Positions 34,103 through 41,866 of a stretch of DNA of 64,000 nt are shown here, piece after piece; positions within the stretch are counted from its first letter, which is position 1, and every line of letters begins with the position of its first letter. The DNA is taken from UHGV virus genome UHGV-0291501; one strand, written 5' to 3'. Under the pieces are notes generated by a model. It searched no databases. It was not told where the DNA came from and was given only the letters and a program-made list of their open reading frames with translations. The DNA comes from a virus. Made by a program: the position numbers and the translations under genes.

Positions 34103-34290
34103 ACAAAGAAGATAAGCATAAAAATGCTGTACGGACTCCTGATGGAAAGGTTCAATCCTTCATCCTGACAGTTGGTGGAAAGCCGTTTCGTTGCCACTGC
34201 GGAGCAAACTGTTTTCATAAACCAGATAAAAATAACTTAGAGCTTTACGCATGTAATGCTTGCAATACTTGGTATCACTCAGAGGATTGA
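34099..34290 (+). CDS. Small zinc-ribbon protein
   Basis: 63 aa with CHCGANC ... CNACN pattern. Confidence 0.45.
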   Translation: MNKEDKHKNAVRTPDGKVQSFILTVGGKPFRCHCGANCFHKPDKNNLELYACNACNTWYHSED

Positions 34291-34292
34291 TT

Positions 34293-34817
34293 ATGATTGA
34301 CAATAGGCGCAGAAATATAATCATCAAAAACTTCCGCGAAGTGTCGCAAAATTTAAGACTAGATGATGTCAGACTTAGGAAATCTTGGTATGACATGAAG
34401 GTATTAGAATATTCTAAAAATCAGCCAATTAAGTTATCTATCTTAGAACATTGGTATACAAACTTTGCAACACCTGAAAATCATAATAAATTATACAAAA
34501 ACTATGTAGATGTTTGTAAAAAGTTTGGTGTAGCAATAGTCGACGACAGTATTGGATTGCTTTATGACCTGTACACAAGGTTCTCTGAATATGCTTTTAA
34601 TGTTCAGTTCAAGAACTACTTAAAGTATGATGATGGTTCATTAAAGTTGTACAACTATGGTTATGGAAAACTAGCCTGCAAACAAGATGATGGTTCTTTT
34701 ATAGACTTCTACACAGGGGTTTTTGTGTACTTACCTGAACAGTGTATGTCACTATCTGATTTAGCAGTCTCACAATTTGGTATCTTTATTCCAGTAAAAT
34801 CACACATGCTAAGGTAA
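34293..34817 (+). CDS. Hypothetical protein
   Basis: Start at ATG 34293 (MIDNRRRN) with gagga RBS; track start at 34260 is TTG. Confidence 0.45.
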   Translation: MIDNRRRNIIIKNFREVSQNLRLDDVRLRKSWYDMKVLEYSKNQPIKLSILEHWYTNFATPENHNKLYKNYVDVCKKFGVAIVDDSIGLLYDLYTRFSEYAFNVQFKNYLKYDDGSLKLYNYGYGKLACKQDDGSFIDFYTGVFVYLPEQCMSLSDLAVSQFGIFIPVKSHMLR

Positions 34818-34822
34818 TTTGA

Positions 34823-35923
34823 ATGACAATTCTATACAAACAAAATAAAGATGGCTCTTTTAACGTCTGGTCATGTGTCGCTGTAGGTGACAAAGTTATT
34901 ACAACCTATGGTAAAGAAAATGGCAAGATGATGTTTGAAGAGTATACAGCAGAACCTAAAAACATCGGTAAAAAGAATGAGCGTAACGCTGAACAGCAAG
35001 CTCTCTTTGAAGTTGCTGCTAAGTATAAAAAGCAAGTTGACCGTAAAGGTTATGCTTACACAAAAGAGTCTGCACAGAATACTGAGAAGGTAGGTGTACA
35101 GCTTGCTCATGATGCTGCAAAGGTTAGTCATGCAAAGTATCTGAAGTTCCCTGCTGATGCTCAACCAAAACTTGATGGTGTTCGTTGTAGAATTTCAAGA
35201 GATGCTGATTCAGTTAGCTTCACGGCTTATTCTCGTGAGAATACTGTTTACAACGTCCCAGTAGAACTAATCCCAGATTTGCTTTTGTTGCTTAAATTGC
35301 ATCCACAAGTAGAAGACTTTGATGGTGAGATTTATGCTCATGGTTGGGACTTAGAAGATATTGTGTCTATGATTAAGAATGCTGACAATCCAGACCGACA
35401 TCTACTCCAGTTCTACTGGTACGATATCTGTGACAGCACTAAGACGTGGCCTGAGCGTAGAGATATTATTGAGACTTCACCTATTGTTGAGCTTGGGGAT
35501 ACCTGTAGAGTGGTTCCTGTACAGACTATCCGTGTAAATTCTTGGGAAGAGTTTGATGAAGCCCATGATAAGTGGGTTGAAGCTAAGTTTGAAGGTGCAA
35601 TGTACCGTTCAATCTCTGAAGACTCCTTCTATGAGTGTGGTCACCGTTCATACTTCTTGATTAAGCACAAGAAGATGCACACTGAAGAGTTTAAAGTAAC
35701 TGGTGTAAAGACTGATAAACGTGGTCATGGTAAGTTCGTCGTAGAGACTCTTCCTAACGTCTTTGTAGATGTCTCATGGAAGACTACTCATGAGAAGAAA
35801 CAGTATCTTGCTGAACATCCTGAAGAGTTTATCGGGAAACCTTTAACTGTTCAGTTCCAGAAGATGACTCGTAAGGGTTCTTTACAGTTCCCTGTTGGGT
35901 TAGTTATTCGAGATTACGAATAA
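34823..35923 (+). CDS. ATP-dependent DNA ligase
   Basis: Adenylation motif I KLDGVRC; size like T7-type ligases. Confidence 0.8.
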   Translation: MTILYKQNKDGSFNVWSCVAVGDKVITTYGKENGKMMFEEYTAEPKNIGKKNERNAEQQALFEVAAKYKKQVDRKGYAYTKESAQNTEKVGVQLAHDAAKVSHAKYLKFPADAQPKLDGVRCRISRDADSVSFTAYSRENTVYNVPVELIPDLLLLLKLHPQVEDFDGEIYAHGWDLEDIVSMIKNADNPDRHLLQFYWYDICDSTKTWPERRDIIETSPIVELGDTCRVVPVQTIRVNSWEEFDEAHDKWVEAKFEGAMYRSISEDSFYECGHRSYFLIKHKKMHTEEFKVTGVKTDKRGHGKFVVETLPNVFVDVSWKTTHEKKQYLAEHPEEFIGKPLTVQFQKMTRKGSLQFPVGLVIRDYE

Positions 35924-35930
35924 AAAGTTG

Positions 35931-35958
35931 TTGACATAGAAAATTTGGTGAGTATACT
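35931..35958 (+). promoter_or_regulatory. Near-consensus sigma70-type promoter TTGACA-N16-TATACT
   Basis: Read directly just after the ligase stop; would transcribe into the G/T-rich non-coding region. Confidence 0.45.
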
Positions 35959-36035
35959 GAGCAGCATAAACCAACGGGTACTCACCAGCATCACTTAAGA
36001 GTCTTCTAAGAGGGTTTTTAAGTAATGTGATGTTT

Positions 36036-36119
36036 GGTTTGGTGTGGTCAGGTAATGTGATGTCTGGTTTAGTGCGGTGATGTGCGGTCCGGTAAGGTCC
36101 GGTGCGGTAAAGTGCGGGT
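36036..36119 (+). repeat. Phased pentamer tract 1A: about 17 tandem (G/N)GTNN units
   Basis: ggttt ggtgt ggtca ggtaa tgtga tgtct ggttt agtgc ggtga tgtgc ggtcc ggtaa ggtcc ggtgc ggtaa agtgc gggta; strict 5-bp phase. Confidence 0.7.
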
Positions 36120-36177
36120 AGTTAGTCTCAGCTACATTAAAATGAGACTTACCTTTTTAAAAGGTCTTTAAGAGGGT
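36116..36177 (+). repeat. 62-bp hairpin module, copy 1 (identical to 37527-37588)
   Basis: gggtagttagtctcagctacattaaaatgagacttacctttttaaaaggtctttaagagggt; 7-bp stem agtctca/tgagact; 15-bp palindrome acctttttaaaaggt. Confidence 0.75.
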
Positions 36178-36186
36178 TTTTTAATG

Positions 36187-36270
36187 AGGTAGGGTAAAGT
36201 AATGTTTGGTCTGGTTTGGTAAGGCGCGGTCTGGTTTGGTAAGGTAAGGTTCGGTATGGTATGGGTGGAT
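36187..36270 (+). repeat. Phased pentamer tract 1B: about 17 GGTNN units
   Basis: ggtag ggtaa agtaa tgttt ggtct ggttt ggtaa ggcgc ggtct ggttt ggtaa ggtaa ggttc ggtat ggtat gggtg. Confidence 0.7.
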
Positions 36271-36297
36271 GGTAGTAGCCACGTTAAAAATCTACCA
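36270..36297 (+). other. Stem-loop (6-bp stem, 16-nt A-rich loop) conserved with a compensatory change in region 2
   Basis: tggtag-tagccacgttaaaaat-ctacca here versus tggcag-tagccttataaaaaat-ctgcca at 37671-37698. Confidence 0.5.
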
Positions 36298-36354
36298 AGT
36301 TTCTAAAGAGTCTTCTGTTGAGGGTTCTTTACAAACAACTTAACAATCAACTAA

Positions 36355-36960
<606 letters not shown>

Positions 36961-36962
36961 TT

Positions 36963-37403
36963 ATGAATACAAAAGCATTAGCAGCAAAGTTTAGTTACGG
37001 TGACACTGTATCACATTCTGAGATGGACACCTTCTTAGGTATTGTGAAGCCAACTTATCAAGGTGACATTGTTAAGTACGAAGATGAAATGAAGGCTTAT
37101 GCGCTTACACGTCTAAACCGACTTGAGAAGTTTATTGAGAAGCTTCTTAAAGAAGAGAAGATTTATCTGGTTGCTTCAATGGGTGTTGGTTATCGTGTGG
37201 TTGAACCTAAGCATCAAGCAACTATTGCAAAACGTAAAATGTCTGGTAAAATTGGTCGTGCTTTAAAGCAAGCTACTCAAGCAATTGAGAATGTGAACAC
37301 TATGGCACTTAGCCACCAAGAACGTTCACGACTAATTGAACAGCAAAACCATTTAGCTGCTATGAAAGCTAACATTAACAAGCAACGTAGAAAACCTTTC
37401 TAA
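36963..37403 (+). CDS. Hypothetical protein (cassette gene 2), helical, basic C-terminus
   Basis: 146 aa; tightly coupled to the upstream gene; followed by a terminator. Confidence 0.5.
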   Translation: MNTKALAAKFSYGDTVSHSEMDTFLGIVKPTYQGDIVKYEDEMKAYALTRLNRLEKFIEKLLKEEKIYLVASMGVGYRVVEPKHQATIAKRKMSGKIGRALKQATQAIENVNTMALSHQERSRLIEQQNHLAAMKANINKQRRKPF

Positions 37404-37414
37404 GTTGACTAGGT

Positions 37415-37437
37415 AGCCTCTTCGGAGGCTCCTTTTT
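37415..37437 (+). terminator. Rho-independent terminator
   Basis: Hairpin agcctc-ttcg-gaggct followed by CCUUUUU. Confidence 0.55.
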
Positions 37438-37462
37438 AAAAGGTCTTTAAGAGGGTCTTTTA

Positions 37463-37530
37463 ATGAGGTAGTATACGGTATGGTGGGGTAGGGTGAGGTC
37501 TGGTTTGGTAAGGTAGGGTCTGGTATGGGT
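37463..37530 (+). repeat. Phased pentamer tract 2A: about 13 GGTNN units
   Basis: ggtag tatac ggtat ggtgg ggtag ggtga ggtct ggttt ggtaa ggtag ggtct ggtat gggta. Confidence 0.7.
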
Positions 37531-37588
37531 AGTTAGTCTCAGCTACATTAAAATGAGACTTACCTTTTTAAAAGGTCTTTAAGAGGGT
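37527..37588 (+). repeat. 62-bp hairpin module, copy 2 (identical to 36116-36177)
   Basis: Same 62-bp string as copy 1, compared by eye base for base. Confidence 0.75.
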
Positions 37589-37596
37589 CTTTTAAC

Positions 37597-37665
37597 AAGG
37601 TTAGGTTAGGTCTGGTGTGGTAGGGTTAGGTGGGGTTAGGTTTGGTATAGTTTGGAAGGATGGCA
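37597..37665 (+). repeat. Phased pentamer tract 2B with telomere-like TTAGG/TTAGGG units
   Basis: ggtta ggtta ggtct ggtgt ggtag ggtta ggtgg ggtta ggttt ggtat. Confidence 0.7.
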
Positions 37666-37670
37666 GTAGC

Positions 37671-37698
37671 CTTATAAAAAATCTGCCAAATAAGCTAT
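37671..37698 (+). other. Stem-loop paralogous to 36270-36297
   Basis: tggcag-tagccttataaaaaat-ctgcca; T:A to C:G compensatory pair relative to region 1. Confidence 0.5.
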
Positions 37699-37706
37699 AA
37701 AATCTG

Positions 37707-37735
37707 TTGACAAGTCAGGTGTTATAGCTTATTTT
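37707..37735 (+). promoter_or_regulatory. Weak sigma70-like promoter candidate (TTGACA-N17-TATTTT)
   Basis: Perfect -35 but poor -10; a better -10 (tatact, about 37736) is 23 bp away, so function is uncertain. Confidence 0.25.
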
Positions 37736-37779
37736 TATACTCAATGTAATACAAAATTTAATATAACTTTGAGGTCATT

Positions 37780-38163
37780 ATGAAAAAGATTTTATTAGCT
37801 GCTGCAATGGTTATGGCAATGAATTTACCAGTCAATGCAACAGAACTTCCAAATGTGGACTTATCAGGTGTTCCAGAAGACACTTGCCAGATTGTTAAAG
37901 GTGTTGCCCTATCTAAAGGTGAACTACTTAAACCAATCTCTGAAGAGTCTTTAACAGAGATGACTGATAAGGTAACTGACTATCAGTATCGTGTTCTTGC
38001 AGAGTATTTCCTGCAATCTGCAAATATTAAAGAGAAGCACCCTGATGATATTGATGTACAGGCTATGCTCAATCATCGTATCCAGTTTAAAGAAGATTTG
38101 ATGCAAAAAGCTATGTATGGTGTTGAGTATTTCTTAGAAAACAGAAGCTGCACAGGTATTTGA
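37780..38163 (+). CDS. Secreted/periplasmic small protein, hypothetical
   Basis: N-terminal signal peptide MKKILLAAAMVMAMNLPVNA. Confidence 0.5.
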   Translation: MKKILLAAAMVMAMNLPVNATELPNVDLSGVPEDTCQIVKGVALSKGELLKPISEESLTEMTDKVTDYQYRVLAEYFLQSANIKEKHPDDIDVQAMLNHRIQFKEDLMQKAMYGVEYFLENRSCTGI

Positions 38164-38164
38164 T

Positions 38165-38377
38165 ATGGCTCTTAAAAAGTTACATCCCAGAAGCGGTTAT
38201 GGTAAGATAATTGACGATACAGACGGCTTTACAGTCTTTACAGTCATCTGTCAGGATGATTCACAGATTGAAAAGGCTCTTGACGATTATCTTAATGATG
38301 AACGTGAAAAGGTCAGAGCTACAAACATAGACTCATTAATTGATACTTCACGTAAACGGAAGAAGAAAGATGAATGA
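38165..38377 (+). CDS. Hypothetical protein
   Basis: 70-aa ORF; no motif. Confidence 0.45.
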   Translation: MALKKLHPRSGYGKIIDDTDGFTVFTVICQDDSQIEKALDDYLNDEREKVRATNIDSLIDTSRKRKKKDE

Positions 38378-38669
38378 GGTTTTTGACCCTTATGCTCCAC
38401 AAGATGATTGGGAGGCTGATAGAGAGGCTGAAATGGAGAGTTATATTTGTCCAATGGATGTAGACGAAATGAGAGACTTCGTTGCACATCGTTTTAAGAG
38501 AGAGATTAAATCCAGAGGTCTTTCTCAAGAGCAAGTTGCTAAAATTTGTGGTATCTCTCAGGCTCGTGTATCCAACATAATCCACCTCACTGGGAATGTT
38601 TCCCTTGAGTATATGTTGGAAGTGTGTGAAAAATTTGGTGTTAATTTTAATTTAAGGTTGGCAGACTAA
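38370..38669 (+). CDS. Small acidic protein with C-terminal XRE-type helix-turn-helix
   Basis: Start at ATG 38370 (MNEVF); HTH-like LSQEQVAKICGISQARVSNIIH; track start at 38340 is TTG. Confidence 0.5.
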   Translation: MNEVFDPYAPQDDWEADREAEMESYICPMDVDEMRDFVAHRFKREIKSRGLSQEQVAKICGISQARVSNIIHLTGNVSLEYMLEVCEKFGVNFNLRLAD

Positions 38670-38670
38670 T

Positions 38671-39030
38671 ATGAAACGTGAAAACATTATCCACTCTGAA
38701 AACTTCGCATTAGGCTTTTATGGTGTACCTACTCACCTTGAAAAGTACTATGGTGTGAAGATTCTTTCCAATCTCATTATGGCTTACAAAGATGGTAAGA
38801 TTAAGCACACTGAGAAGAAACGTGTCATGGGCTATATGGCTGTAGGCTCAGCAGTCTCAAACATTAAGCTGGAAACAACTAGCAGTCAGATTGTAAAAGA
38901 CCACTTCATCAAAGAGCTTTACCACAATCTTGATGGTGTAGATGTTCAGGCTGTTTGGCTGGATGTTGATGGTCACAACTACACAAGTTTTGTTTTCAAA
39001 AACGACGACATTAAGTGCTTGTTCCCATAA
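38671..39030 (+). CDS. Hypothetical protein
   Basis: 119-aa ORF; no motif. Confidence 0.45.
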   Translation: MKRENIIHSENFALGFYGVPTHLEKYYGVKILSNLIMAYKDGKIKHTEKKRVMGYMAVGSAVSNIKLETTSSQIVKDHFIKELYHNLDGVDVQAVWLDVDGHNYTSFVFKNDDIKCLFP

Positions 39031-39037
39031 TAGGTGA

Positions 39038-39559
39038 TTGATTATGATTGATATCTACTTACAAGATGCTCATGCAGATTTCCTTAAAGAGATGCTTAAA
39101 AAGTTTATGGCTTCACAGTATGAGAATGAAGCATCTTTTAAAATAGTTACATGTGGCGACGAAGCTGGTTTTGTTGAGATTGAACATGAAGGTACTGGAA
39201 AGACTGTTTGCAAGTTACCTGATAGTATGTTCTCTAGCACGTTCTTAACAAAGACTAGTATAAATATTAAGCTTGTTCCACAGATTGAAACATACTCTGG
39301 TACAGATTACCCTAAAGGCTTCAAGTCACTGATGAAACACTTCTTAGATGACTTTGTGAGTAATCTTCTAAGTGAGGTAACAGAAAGTCGTACAATATTG
39401 ACTGTAGAGAACATCGGAGGGACTATCAGGGTTACTTCTGACCGCTACTCAATGAGCCTCTTCGACTTCGTTCCTAAGAATTTTGATGGTATTCTGGATG
39501 AAGAAGATGACTGTGTAGACTTTATATTGGTTCTTGAGCCAGTTTTTGAGGTTAAATAA
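39038..39559 (+). CDS. Hypothetical protein
   Basis: 173-aa ORF; no motif. Confidence 0.45.
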   Translation: MIMIDIYLQDAHADFLKEMLKKFMASQYENEASFKIVTCGDEAGFVEIEHEGTGKTVCKLPDSMFSSTFLTKTSINIKLVPQIETYSGTDYPKGFKSLMKHFLDDFVSNLLSEVTESRTILTVENIGGTIRVTSDRYSMSLFDFVPKNFDGILDEEDDCVDFILVLEPVFEVK

Positions 39560-39820
39560 ATGAAAATTGAACACTGCTATGAGTCTGATGGAACACCTAT
39601 CCGATGTCCACATTGCGGGTGTACAGACTTACAAGGTGAGGTAAGTGAAATAGTCAACGGTCATATTGCTGAAGAAAGTACCCGATGCACAGGGTGTAAT
39701 GAAATTATCGCTTTCTGGGCTTATGGTTCATACCAACCCTCTCCACATTTTATCTACCATCGTAGTAAAGTTGTGAAGAGTGTCATCAACTGGTTCATTA
39801 AGAAAGGGTTTACAAAATGA
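39560..39820 (+). CDS. Small zinc-ribbon protein
   Basis: CPHCGC ... CTGCN pattern; stop overlaps DHFR start (ATGA). Confidence 0.45.
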   Translation: MKIEHCYESDGTPIRCPHCGCTDLQGEVSEIVNGHIAEESTRCTGCNEIIAFWAYGSYQPSPHFIYHRSKVVKSVINWFIKKGFTK

Positions 39821-40362
39821 TTAAGCTAATATTTGCAAGTGGTGAAAACGGTGAATTTGGTACTCCAACTGGTATGCCGTGGCCTCGACATAAACAGGAC
39901 ATGCAAGAGTTTAAGAGACTCACTAAAAATAACTTAGTAGTCATGGGTAATGAGACTTTTAAGACTCTGGGTAGTAAACCTCTACCAGAACGTGCAAACC
40001 TAATCTTAACAAATTCTGTACCATACTTAGGTATAGATTTTGGCAAAGATGGTGTAATGTATGCTAAGGCCAGCAAAGAATCCTTTGGAGCATTTTTGAA
40101 GTATCTTGATAGCTCTATTGATGAAGATGTCTTTGTAATTGGTGGTGCAGGTGTCCTTGTCAATGCTTTACCGTATGCTGGTGTGGTGTTCCATACAGTC
40201 TTCCATAAAGTTACTGAAGAGGCTACTGTGCATTTACCTTTTGAAAACTTCTTTGAGAAGCTGTATGATAACCGTGTATTTACAAAGGTACAGTCAAAAC
40301 CATCAGAGGATGGTAAAGCAACTTTTGAAATTTATGTTCCACAAGTAAAAGGACACTTTTGA
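39817..40362 (+). CDS. frd: Dihydrofolate reductase
   Basis: Motifs GMPWPRHKQDMQEFKRLT and VVMGNETFKTLG; directly upstream of thymidylate synthase. Confidence 0.8.
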   Translation: MIKLIFASGENGEFGTPTGMPWPRHKQDMQEFKRLTKNNLVVMGNETFKTLGSKPLPERANLILTNSVPYLGIDFGKDGVMYAKASKESFGAFLKYLDSSIDEDVFVIGGAGVLVNALPYAGVVFHTVFHKVTEEATVHLPFENFFEKLYDNRVFTKVQSKPSEDGKATFEIYVPQVKGHF

Positions 40363-40363
40363 T

Positions 40364-41263
40364 ATGTCACAAGCAGATTCAAGTTACAAAAATATCCTGA
40401 ACCATGTTTTATCCGTTGGTGAACTGCGTACTACACGAACTGGAGATGTTATCTCTGCATTTGCTCCACCTCAGTTTCGTTTTGATATGCGAACTGGTTT
40501 CCCGCTCTTAACATCTAAACAGGTGTTTACACGGCAAGTCATTGGGGAAGCTTTATGGTTCCTGAATGGTGAGAATAAACTTGGTGAACTCCGTTATCGC
40601 ACTTGGGGTGAAAATGATGGAGAACGTTGGACTATCTGGTCAGATGATTTTAAACGTTGGTTAAGCTCTAACTATTCTTCTGAGCAAGACTGGTTAGAAG
40701 ATGCAGGTGGGAGAATCTACGGGGTTCAGTGGAGAAACTTTGAAGGTCATAATGGTTGTGTTGTAGACCAGTTAGAAACCTTAGTAACGAAGATGAAAGG
40801 TGATATCACAGACCGTTACATGCTTGTTAATGCTTGGAATGCAGCAGATATTGCAGCAAACTCAATGGCTTTAGCACCTTGTCATGTTCTGTTTCAGATT
40901 TATATCACCAACGAAGGTGAAGTTGACTTGCAATGGTATCAGCGTTCTGTAGACACCTTTTTAGGGCTTCCATTTAATATTGCGTCTTATGGTTTTATTC
41001 TGGAAGTTCTTTGCAAGATGACTGGATACACTCCACGATACTTGATAGGTGTCTTTGGGGATACTCAGATTTACCAGAACCATATGAAGCAGGTTTATGA
41101 ACTGATGAACAATGAAGAGTTCCATGCACCTACTTTTGAGATTGGTGTACAACTTAACACCTTAAGTGACTTAAAACATCTTACTGCAAGTAACTTTATT
41201 GGTGGCATCAACAACTACAAACATGCAGGAAAGATTGAAGCACCTTTGTCAGTAGGTAAATAA
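40364..41263 (+). CDS. thyA: Thymidylate synthase
   Basis: Hallmarks RTGDVISAFAPPQFRFDM, active-site ALAPCHVLFQIY, YQRSVDTFLGLPFNIASY. Confidence 0.9.
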   Translation: MSQADSSYKNILNHVLSVGELRTTRTGDVISAFAPPQFRFDMRTGFPLLTSKQVFTRQVIGEALWFLNGENKLGELRYRTWGENDGERWTIWSDDFKRWLSSNYSSEQDWLEDAGGRIYGVQWRNFEGHNGCVVDQLETLVTKMKGDITDRYMLVNAWNAADIAANSMALAPCHVLFQIYITNEGEVDLQWYQRSVDTFLGLPFNIASYGFILEVLCKMTGYTPRYLIGVFGDTQIYQNHMKQVYELMNNEEFHAPTFEIGVQLNTLSDLKHLTASNFIGGINNYKHAGKIEAPLSVGK

Positions 41264-41308
41264 AACAAAAAAGGCTCCCGTCAAAAGGAGCCTTAAAATT
41301 TTATTTTT
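41258..41308. terminator. Bidirectional terminator between convergent genes
   Basis: 8-bp stem aaggctcc/ggagcctt with U-rich tracts on both strands; between thyA (plus) and 41301..41672 (minus). Confidence 0.5.
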
Positions 41309-41672
41309 CAGTATTCTTTGTGTTCTTCTCAGTAATAGCTTGGAGGGCTGATACTGATTGAGCCAGATTATTCACACTGTCAGAGAATTTATCAAGAGTT
41401 TTGGTAAGTTTTGCGTTTTCACCCTTAACATTCTCTAACTGAACTTTCTGGTTCTCCATCCCTAGCTGAATCAGTCTCATGTCAGACTGTAAATCACGAA
41501 TAGCTGAATAATTACTTTTGGAATAATTATCTAACTGTTGTAACTTTGTTGTGATAGACACTTCTTGCTTACCATCCGAGACTTGCATGGTGGTATACAT
41601 CCCAATAACACTAAAAATACCAACTACAATTGCACCAATATTATTTTTAAAAGCTTCCTCTAGCCACTTCAT
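41301..41672 (-). CDS. Membrane-anchored coiled-coil protein, hypothetical
   Basis: N-terminal TM helix (IGAIVVGIFSVIGMYTT) then long helical region; downstream of tail fibres. Confidence 0.4.
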   Translation of the reverse strand: MKWLEEAFKNNIGAIVVGIFSVIGMYTTMQVSDGKQEVSITTKLQQLDNYSKSNYSAIRDLQSDMRLIQLGMENQKVQLENVKGENAKLTKTLDKFSDSVNNLAQSVSALQAITEKNTKNTEK

Positions 41673-41866
41673 TTATTCTCCCCCTTAAAAGCTTTTTCTA
41701 AGTTATCTACGAACTCATCATCAATAGGTGTGTCTGTTTTACTCGCAAGGTATCTTGCAAGCCTAAAGAACACTTTCTCAATCATGTATTCACTTAGAAG
41801 GGATAAAATGAGTTTCCAGAAGAAGCTACCTAGATTTTTTAGAAGAATTGCTAGGATTGTAGGCAT
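41669..41866 (-). CDS. Small membrane protein, hypothetical
   Basis: 65 aa with one hydrophobic helix; holin-like size but no lysis enzyme adjacent. Confidence 0.35.
   Translation of the reverse strand: MPTILAILLKNLGSFFWKLILSLLSEYMIEKVFFRLARYLASKTDTPIDDEFVDNLEKAFKGENK

Follow-up and report, generated by a model that had tools for sequence, protein, structure and literature searches.

The 64,000-nucleotide viral sequence UHGV-0291501, referred to here as the window, carries six small plus-strand genes, designated A to F, between the second of two GGT-rich repeat regions and the gene for dihydrofolate reductase (DHFR, frd). These genes probably form the promoter-proximal part of a conserved operon that encodes a heterogeneous set of small, lineage-specific binding proteins for host or envelope interactions alongside nucleotide supply. 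The window belongs to Felixounavirus, the genus of Felix O1-like myoviruses. A megablast search with positions 37400–40400 matched 252 phage records, 213 of which span 80% or more of the query. Enterobacteria phage KhF3 was the best match (97.3% identity) and the others were Escherichia, Salmonella and Shigella phages of the same genus. In annotated relatives, a pair of hypothetical genes follows the DNA ligase gene, and after this pair come the six small genes, DHFR and thymidylate synthase (ThyA, td), and then convergent holin and tail-fibre genes. The six products would be small, non-enzymatic and lineage-restricted proteins that most likely bind other molecules, each with a different target.

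A preliminary description of the window, made from the sequence without database searches, had placed six plus-strand small genes between 37780 and 39820, and the list of open reading frames (ORFs) gives A to F with exactly these outer limits (Table 1). The six are real genes and not chance ORFs, because each aligns along its entire length with a PHROG family of its own (E-values of 1e-26 to 1e-89), the same order is found in 31 loci, and dN/dS is 0.03–0.12. Within Felixounavirus, the dN/dS values are 0.073 for A, 0.032 for B, 0.049 for C, 0.031 for D, 0.116 for E and 0.090 for F, with 0.078 for DHFR and 0.031 for ThyA, and third codon positions hold most of the variable sites of the six genes. 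It is very improbable that some of them are annotation artefacts or decaying ORFs. The 8-nt overlap of B and C might be taken that way, as might two broken copies of E: this gene is split by an apparent frameshift in phage SUSP2 (two BLAST segments at L029 4847–5364 and a 100-aa fragment, P0064) and is fragmented in vB_SflM_004 (locus L041). However, every other locus carries intact full-length orthologues, variation is biased to third positions, and dN/dS is at most 0.12. The frameshift in SUSP2 may be a sequencing error, and the fragmentation in vB_SflM_004 likely is one, since the DHFR and tail-fibre genes of that record are also broken.

The absence of enzymatic motifs given in the preliminary description was borne out, as no enzymatic Pfam or NCBIfam family scored above threshold for any of the six proteins. 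Pfam, NCBIfam, PADLOC and PHROGs searches with single proteins returned no functional family above threshold for A, B, D or E, and Pfam searches with varied members of the D, E and A families likewise gave no family above threshold. The PHROG families of all but C are labelled "unknown function". Profile searches of PDB sequences with A, D, E and F found no relative, no paralogue of A, B, D, E or F was found elsewhere in the window, and an Rfam scan of 35500–41800 gave no match. Weak matches of A to PRA-PH, of E to a "head completion protein" and of B to DUF406 were taken as noise. The earlier statement that none of the six is identifiable by motif is slightly too strong for C, which has a Pfam helix-turn-helix (HTH) domain.

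The proposed operon is bounded by a sigma-70-like promoter upstream of A and a bidirectional terminator-like hairpin after ThyA, and the terminator scan found no other terminator-like site between them. A promoter is annotated at the equivalent position in phage AYO145A, and a terminator at the equivalent of the downstream hairpin in phages AYO145A and XTG1. The sequence TGTTGACA at the promoter is unchanged in seven genomes from three genera. All junctions from A to ThyA are gaps of 0–1 nt or overlaps of 4–8 nt with the exception of a 13-nt gap between D and E, the stop codon of F overlaps the DHFR start codon (ATGA), and Shine-Dalgarno-like sequences precede A, E and F. Because of this promoter with its conserved -35 box, the lone downstream terminator and the tight gene junctions, A-B-C-D-E-F-frd-td is read from its layout as one putative eight-gene operon. 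Host sigma-70 RNA polymerase would start at this promoter and transcribe as far as the terminator at 41271, and translation of A to F, DHFR and ThyA is probably coupled, because the genes abut or overlap. The location of the six genes, behind a sigma-70-type promoter and within the replication and nucleotide-metabolism block, agrees with the preliminary description.

Table 1. Features of the six-gene block and its putative transcription unit (positions are those of the window)
Feature	Position	Strand	Description
Terminator-like hairpin	37415–37430	+	AGCCTC-TTCG-GAGGCT followed by a T-run; terminator scan; closes the upstream U1/U2 unit and marks the 5' limit of the A–F unit
Inverted repeat	37688–37734	.	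19-nt arms at 37688–37706 and 37716–37734, 89% complementary, 9 nt apart
Sigma-70-like promoter	37707–37735	+	TTGACA, 17 nt, TATTTT; 10/12 consensus matches
Gene A	37780–38163	+	127 aa; phrog_4332; orthologue of bas63_0037
Gene B	38165–38377	+	70 aa; phrog_4473; orthologue of bas63_0036
Gene C	38370–38669	+	99 aa from ATG; phrog_1373; Bas63-035 (bas63_0035); mechanically called ORF begins at TTG 38340
Gene D	38671–39030	+	119 aa; phrog_4116; orthologue of bas63_0034
Gene E	39044–39559	+	171 aa from ATG behind AGGTGA; phrog_4422; orthologue of bas63_0033; mechanically called ORF begins at TTG 39038
Gene F	39560–39820	+	86 aa; phrog_2993; orthologue of Bas63 gene 32 (bas63_0032)
DHFR (frd)	39817–40362	+	Pfam DHFR_1, E=5.6e-22; same transcription unit as A–F
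ThyA (td)	40364–41263	+	Thymidylate synthase; final gene of the unit
Bidirectional terminator-like hairpin	41271–41294	.	After ThyA; shared with the convergent holin gene

An inverted repeat brackets the -35 box of this promoter and overlaps its -10 box. Within the window, exact copies of the 13-nt core AAATAAGCTATAA are confined to the two arms of the repeat. The repeat is present in SUSP1, Moogle, wV8 and Bas63 and could be an operator. Against this stands its absence from ESh22 and L027, two genomes that carry gene C.

The distribution of the six genes was determined by a tblastn search of 50,697 phage records. Approximately 259 records were recovered for each of A, B, C and E, all from Felixounavirus, Mooglevirus and Suspvirus. 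D was found in 301 records, which add Kolesnikvirus (Erwinia) and Hafnia phages of the Ounavirinae, and F in 413 records, which add Krischvirus (T4-like), JenP1, Pseudomonas phage phiPMW, and Klebsiella, Cronobacter and Vibrio phages. A word search of 5.8 billion proteins with A, D and E returned only Ounavirinae relatives, and no relatives of B, D or E were detectable outside this subfamily. Each of the 31 fetched loci of Felixounavirus, Mooglevirus and Suspvirus has all six genes, with their order unchanged. These loci differ in content in one respect only: Mooglevirus and Suspvirus have an additional gene between D and E, which encodes a 166–167-aa protein of unknown function (phrog_9143; L004 5664–6164, L005 5665–6168 and L006 5663–6166); the equivalent site in Felixounavirus is the 13-nt gap only. 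At greater distance the contents of the slot between ligase and DHFR differ. The Hafnia phage carries D and two unrelated ORFs there, and Kolesnikvirus has one unrelated ORF, with D located upstream of ligase instead. In these distant Ounavirinae A, B, C and E are absent, and the relatives of F, all of them remote, lie elsewhere in the genomes. The block is thus fixed within three genera, and the slot turns over at the level of the subfamily.

The description of the six genes as an island, in the sense of an accessory region, was not upheld. Their content and order are the same in approximately 259 phage records, they are under strong purifying selection, and they are predicted to be co-transcribed with DHFR and ThyA. 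No presence–absence variation or replacement was seen among close relatives, although turnover of the slot is observed at deeper distance. Known anti-defence loci typically differ between close relatives, and the fixed content therefore also bears on a related explanation, in which the block is a dedicated anti-defence island and each protein blocks one immune system, with F as a Lar-like restriction alleviator and E as an acidic DNA mimic or inhibitor. Such an island is unlikely, even though the genes are small, non-enzymatic and promoter-proximal and the same slot holds other genes in distant Ounavirinae.

Divergence between genera was measured by comparing the window with three to seven Suspvirus and Mooglevirus loci, the number varying by gene. 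Protein identity is 91–94% for ligase, 78–81% for ThyA and 57–68% for DHFR. Within the block it is 64–79% for C, 61–70% for D, 59–67% for F, 53–63% for B, 33–40% for E and 30–34% for A. A and E are therefore the fastest diverging between genera, which could be accommodated by an anti-defence island but, set against ligase and ThyA, also fits proteins with putative host- or phage-interaction surfaces. Within the genus, F has diverged further than the other five (84–100% identity). A sharp mosaic boundary between Felixounavirus, Suspvirus and Mooglevirus lies at approximately 37745, just past the promoter. DNA identity is about 86–92% across ligase, U1/U2 (the two hypothetical genes upstream), the repeats and the promoter, and collapses after the promoter, where A to ThyA exhibit 30–81% protein identity.

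Experimental information on these genes comes from Escherichia phage JohannRWettstein (Bas63, MZ501086), which carries the same six genes in the same order (bas63_0037 to bas63_0032) next to DHFR and ThyA. Protein identity between the window and Bas63 is 97.6% for A, 100% for B, 100% for C, 98.3% for D, 93.0% for E and 83.7% for F. Bas63 differs in lacking the U1/U2 pair and in having one copy of the GGT-rich repeat upstream, compared to two in the window. The gene numbering used for Bas63 was checked and corresponds to its locus tags, with gene 65 encoding glutaredoxin, genes 79/80 NAD enzymes and genes 84/85 rIIA/B. The preliminary description had proposed that proteins of this kind are host-takeover or anti-defence effectors, and the link to host immunity stands in that both C and F are connected with it in Bas63 experiments. 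The anti-defence part fares less well. C acts as a trigger and not as an inhibitor, and none of genes 32–37 is mentioned in the text of the Bas63 knockout study as one of the counters or triggers discussed there or validated on 12 defence strains. Bas63 is also markedly sensitive to several restriction-modification systems, a further point against a dedicated anti-defence island. Triggering a defence differs from counteracting one, and none of A to F is a demonstrated anti-defence factor. Upstream of ligase, in the same plus-strand block of Bas63, lies a further small hypothetical gene, gene 40 (bas63_0040, L039 8883–9101), which the text of the knockout preprint reports as a trigger of the hhe defence.

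The protein encoded by C was described beforehand as having an XRE-type HTH domain behind an acidic N-terminus, and this architecture is present. The first 35 residues contain 13 Asp or Glu residues, and Pfam HTH_3 (PF01381) matches residues 53–103 of the 109-aa form (E=6e-10, 39.4 bits with a cut-off of 23). The C-terminal 50 residues thus match the XRE/Cro-C1 family of phage regulators (HTH_3; phrog_1373) above the gathering score. Unlike typical members of that group, C has a conserved acidic N-terminal extension of 40 residues and its full-length form is confined to three Ounavirinae genera; it is carried by a strictly lytic phage. The PDB entry 8vd6 (CAP REPEAT, E=3e-12) was uninformative as a match, being the sum of four weak matches to an internally repeated chain. 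C is identical to Bas63-035. In each of three independent DRT7-escape mutants of Bas63, a start-codon or frameshift mutation is found in Bas63-035, and cell death occurs only when DRT7 and Bas63-035 are co-expressed, and Bas63-035 on its own gives no stimulation of DNA synthesis by DRT7 in vitro (2026 bioRxiv preprint, 10.64898/2026.04.18.719102). Because viable DRT7-escape mutants carry loss-of-function mutations in Bas63-035, C is, from this Bas63 literature, expressed during infection, dispensable on DH10B and sensed by the host defence DRT7. C is predicted to be a DNA-binding regulator of the XRE type, which would be unneeded in laboratory hosts, and the sole lead to an operator is the inverted repeat at the operon promoter.

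The CxxC...CxxC ribbon attributed to one of the six proteins is found in F, which carries CPHCG...CTGC. The four cysteines are invariant in ten diverse homologues, in which the complete set of invariant residues is C16, C19, C43, C46, W53, Y55, G56 and P60 (Cys4 followed by W-x-Y-G-x3-P). The NCBIfam search gave 18.1 bits for Lar (TIGR03655, E=0.0024, cut-off 39.6) and 20.7 bits for ECs_2282_CxxC (NF047912, cut-off 37), and is thus below the threshold in both cases. Among the ten family members, eight match ECs_2282_CxxC (best E=7.2e-6) and five match Lar (none better than E=0.0024), all below the cut-offs. Alignment of F with E. coli RalR/Lar by hhalign covered 32 ribbon columns with a probability of 47.9%. 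F is similar to Lar/RalR of the Rac prophage in its small size and in the CPxCG...CxxC four-cysteine ribbon, but the C-terminal part of Lar has no counterpart in F, and the W-x-Y-G-x3-P motif and 25-residue tail of F have no counterpart in Lar. By the tests available, F shares the predicted zinc-ribbon architecture of Lar but is not a member of that family. Matches of F to C2H2 zinc-finger entries in the PDB reflect cysteine spacing only, and a GenBank label near F, "Walker B motif", was unsupported by any test run.

In a 2024 preprint, Bas63 gene 32 was called Lar-like and conditionally important, with a host-strain-dependent effect on fitness and less importance in DH10B. This strain dependence, together with the sub-threshold likeness of F to the Lar and ECs_2282 ribbons, counts in favour of an anti-defence island, as does the finding that F homologues in other phages sit in runs of small hypothetical genes. 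The distance of the Lar score from its cut-off argues against it. F would be a zinc-ribbon protein whose relatives occur across many groups of phages and whose loss may be costly only in some E. coli strains. In an Erwinia Kolesnikvirus (L037 2447–2731), an F-family gene lies directly upstream of a pair encoding ribose-phosphate pyrophosphokinase and nicotinamide phosphoribosyltransferase; the Bas63 counterpart of this enzyme pair counters NAD-depleting defences.

The signal peptide noted beforehand is found in A, which begins with MKK, a 13-residue hydrophobic core (ILLAAAMVMAMNL) and VNA, and has the highest hydropathy peak of the six. Judged by sequence layout, with no dedicated predictor, it fits the Sec/signal peptidase I pattern of a basic n-region, a core of 10–15 residues and small residues at -3 and -1. 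This layout is kept in all eight A orthologues despite approximately 32% identity, with ASA, AVA, AAA or AYA before the predicted cleavage site, and no lipobox (L-x-x-C) was found in A or its orthologues. A is therefore predicted to be exported by Sec and cleaved after VNA20. C36 and C124 (precursor numbering) are invariant and would form a disulfide; other invariant features are a G-E-L-x-K-P loop and several aspartates and tyrosines on helix 2. AlphaFold2 models mature A (107 residues, 32 sequences) as a three-helix bundle (H11–25, H35–66 and H73–101) with a pLDDT of 94.4 and a pTM of 0.85. Foldseek against the PDB found no match to this model at E≤0.001; the best had E=0.3 and a TM-score of 0.39, and matches were mostly designed bundles and syntaxins. 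The only match in a viral structure library was the orthologue from Shigella phage Sf13.

T4 Spackle (Sp) and RI are phage proteins of small size that are exported and function in the periplasm. A is similar to them in being small, signal-peptide-bearing and helical, with two invariant cysteines, and in its occurrence in a lytic myovirus. The likeness is a functional analogy only, as no sequence or fold relation was found: neither protein is among the 50 Foldseek matches listed, and the profile search of the PDB was empty. A would accordingly be a Sec-exported protein, closed by a disulfide, that acts in the periplasm, and on this analogy the best guess for its role is exclusion of superinfecting phages or control of lysis timing. 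The convergent gene at 41301–41672 (minus strand), annotated as a holin, encodes one transmembrane segment and a C-terminal domain of approximately 90 residues that is predicted to be periplasmic. This domain is a conceivable partner of exported A. A bolder proposal holds that two or more of the proteins represent new effector classes, with F-type ribbons (more than 400 phage genomes) as a counter-defence or host-takeover family distinct from Lar, and A as a new periplasmic three-helix-bundle factor, stapled by a disulfide, that excludes superinfecting Ounavirinae or tunes the holin; this is doubtful.

For B, no family match was found. Its last 22 residues, VRATN(I/L)DSLIDTSRKR(K/R)KKDE, are near-invariant across genera, with one N-to-S change (ESh22), and the rest of the protein is far more variable. 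The codons of this tail vary synonymously (TCA/TCC/TCG/TCT, CGT/AGA/CGA and ATT/ATA/ATC). Because synonymous sites vary under a conserved peptide, what is constrained in the tail is the peptide rather than the RNA or the overlap with C. The tail looks like a short linear binding motif, and B would offer this amphipathic and basic C-terminal peptide to a partner. The GenBank label of B, "heme-degrading enzyme-like", was unsupported by any test run.

The E protein is acidic (pI 4.5, 30 Asp or Glu and 16 Lys or Arg residues), a property that would suit a DNA mimic in an anti-defence island. Its AlphaFold2 model, tentatively an alpha/beta fold, exhibits no fold match to any known inhibitor. E is best described as an acidic, fast-diverging and probably cytoplasmic protein.

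D is near-neutral (pI 7.85) and is the only one of the six kept full-length across the Ounavirinae, always inside the replication and nucleotide-metabolism block. A HMMER search of 1.84 billion representatives with D gave five real clusters only, all from the Ounavirinae, and the remaining matches were giant repetitive proteins. No Pfam family was found at E≤1 for eight diverse D homologues, and D gave no relative in the PDB profile search described above. The label "nucleoside triphosphate hydrolase" (P-loop), given in some GenBank records, is not borne out for D, which has no GxxxxGK[ST] motif and no match to an NTPase family in NCBIfam at E≤1. D would be a conserved cytoplasmic factor that travels with DNA-metabolism genes.

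Another reading treats all six proteins as accessories of DNA and nucleotide metabolism that would work with DHFR, ThyA, ligase and polymerase; they might, for instance, be scaffolds of a dNTP-synthesis complex or regulators of the module. Membership in one predicted operon with frd and td, with translational coupling, would agree with this, as would the position inside a polymerase-ligase-DHFR-ThyA block, the retention of D beside ligase or DHFR in Hafnia and Erwinia phages, and dN/dS values of B, C and D as low as that of ThyA. Nevertheless, A to F exhibit no homology to known replication or nucleotide-metabolism enzymes or accessory proteins, the kind of homology that would have spoken against the effector proposal of the preliminary description. 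A is predicted to be exported, which would keep it away from DNA metabolism in the cytoplasm. Plaques form without C, and some Ounavirinae that retain the same enzymes lack A, B, C and E. An accessory role in metabolism for the whole set is consequently considered quite unlikely.

Several points weigh against the favoured interpretation, that of an operon of heterogeneous binding proteins for host or envelope interactions. The roles given to A, B, D and E are inferred, and housekeeping accessory roles would account just as well for the low dN/dS and strict synteny. The promoter was recognized by its consensus alone, in a scan in which promoter-like sites were no commoner than in shuffled sequence. 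Searches found no transcript data or direct expression timing for any Felixounavirus, the Bas63 results come from preprints, and the model of E is only moderately confident (pLDDT 75.2, pTM 0.63).

Felix O1-like phages are widely used in diagnostics, biocontrol and therapy for Salmonella and E. coli, and the block is still annotated as hypothetical. Public databases already contain the exact sequences of all six proteins, under the name "hypothetical protein" or, in the case of C, "XRE-type DNA-binding protein", so that the block is known in its sequences and families and in part of its biology. It is typical of the runs of small genes that are specific to one phage lineage. Recent preprints cover part of it, and it is a reasonable but unsurprising place for host-interaction proteins. 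The sensing of C by DRT7, the host-dependent fitness effects of F and the predicted export of A make it useful to phage engineering and defence biology. The F family, which recurs in many unrelated phages, has the widest reach and, along with the putatively exported A, is the most promising lead.

Upstream of the operon, two genes of unknown function, U1 (36373–36960, 195 aa) and U2 (36963–37403, 146 aa), lie between two GGT-rich repeat regions within the stretch 35923–37745. The repeat regions span approximately 35923–36340 and 37431–37655, and each unit begins with CCTTTTTAAAAGGTCTTTAAGAGGGTCTTTTAA. U1 and U2 exhibit 98–100% protein identity between genera and are present in 18 of 33 related loci, with absences in Bas63 and ESh22, which suggests that the pair was gained or lost by recombination between the repeats. 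The idea of U1/U2 as a uniquely mobile cassette is weakened by the neighbouring ligase, which is also highly conserved across genera. Further upstream, before ligase, blastn found no counterpart in Bas63, SUSP1 or L027 for a segment of approximately 536 bp (34286–34821), which may be an inserted small gene or the remnant of a homing endonuclease.

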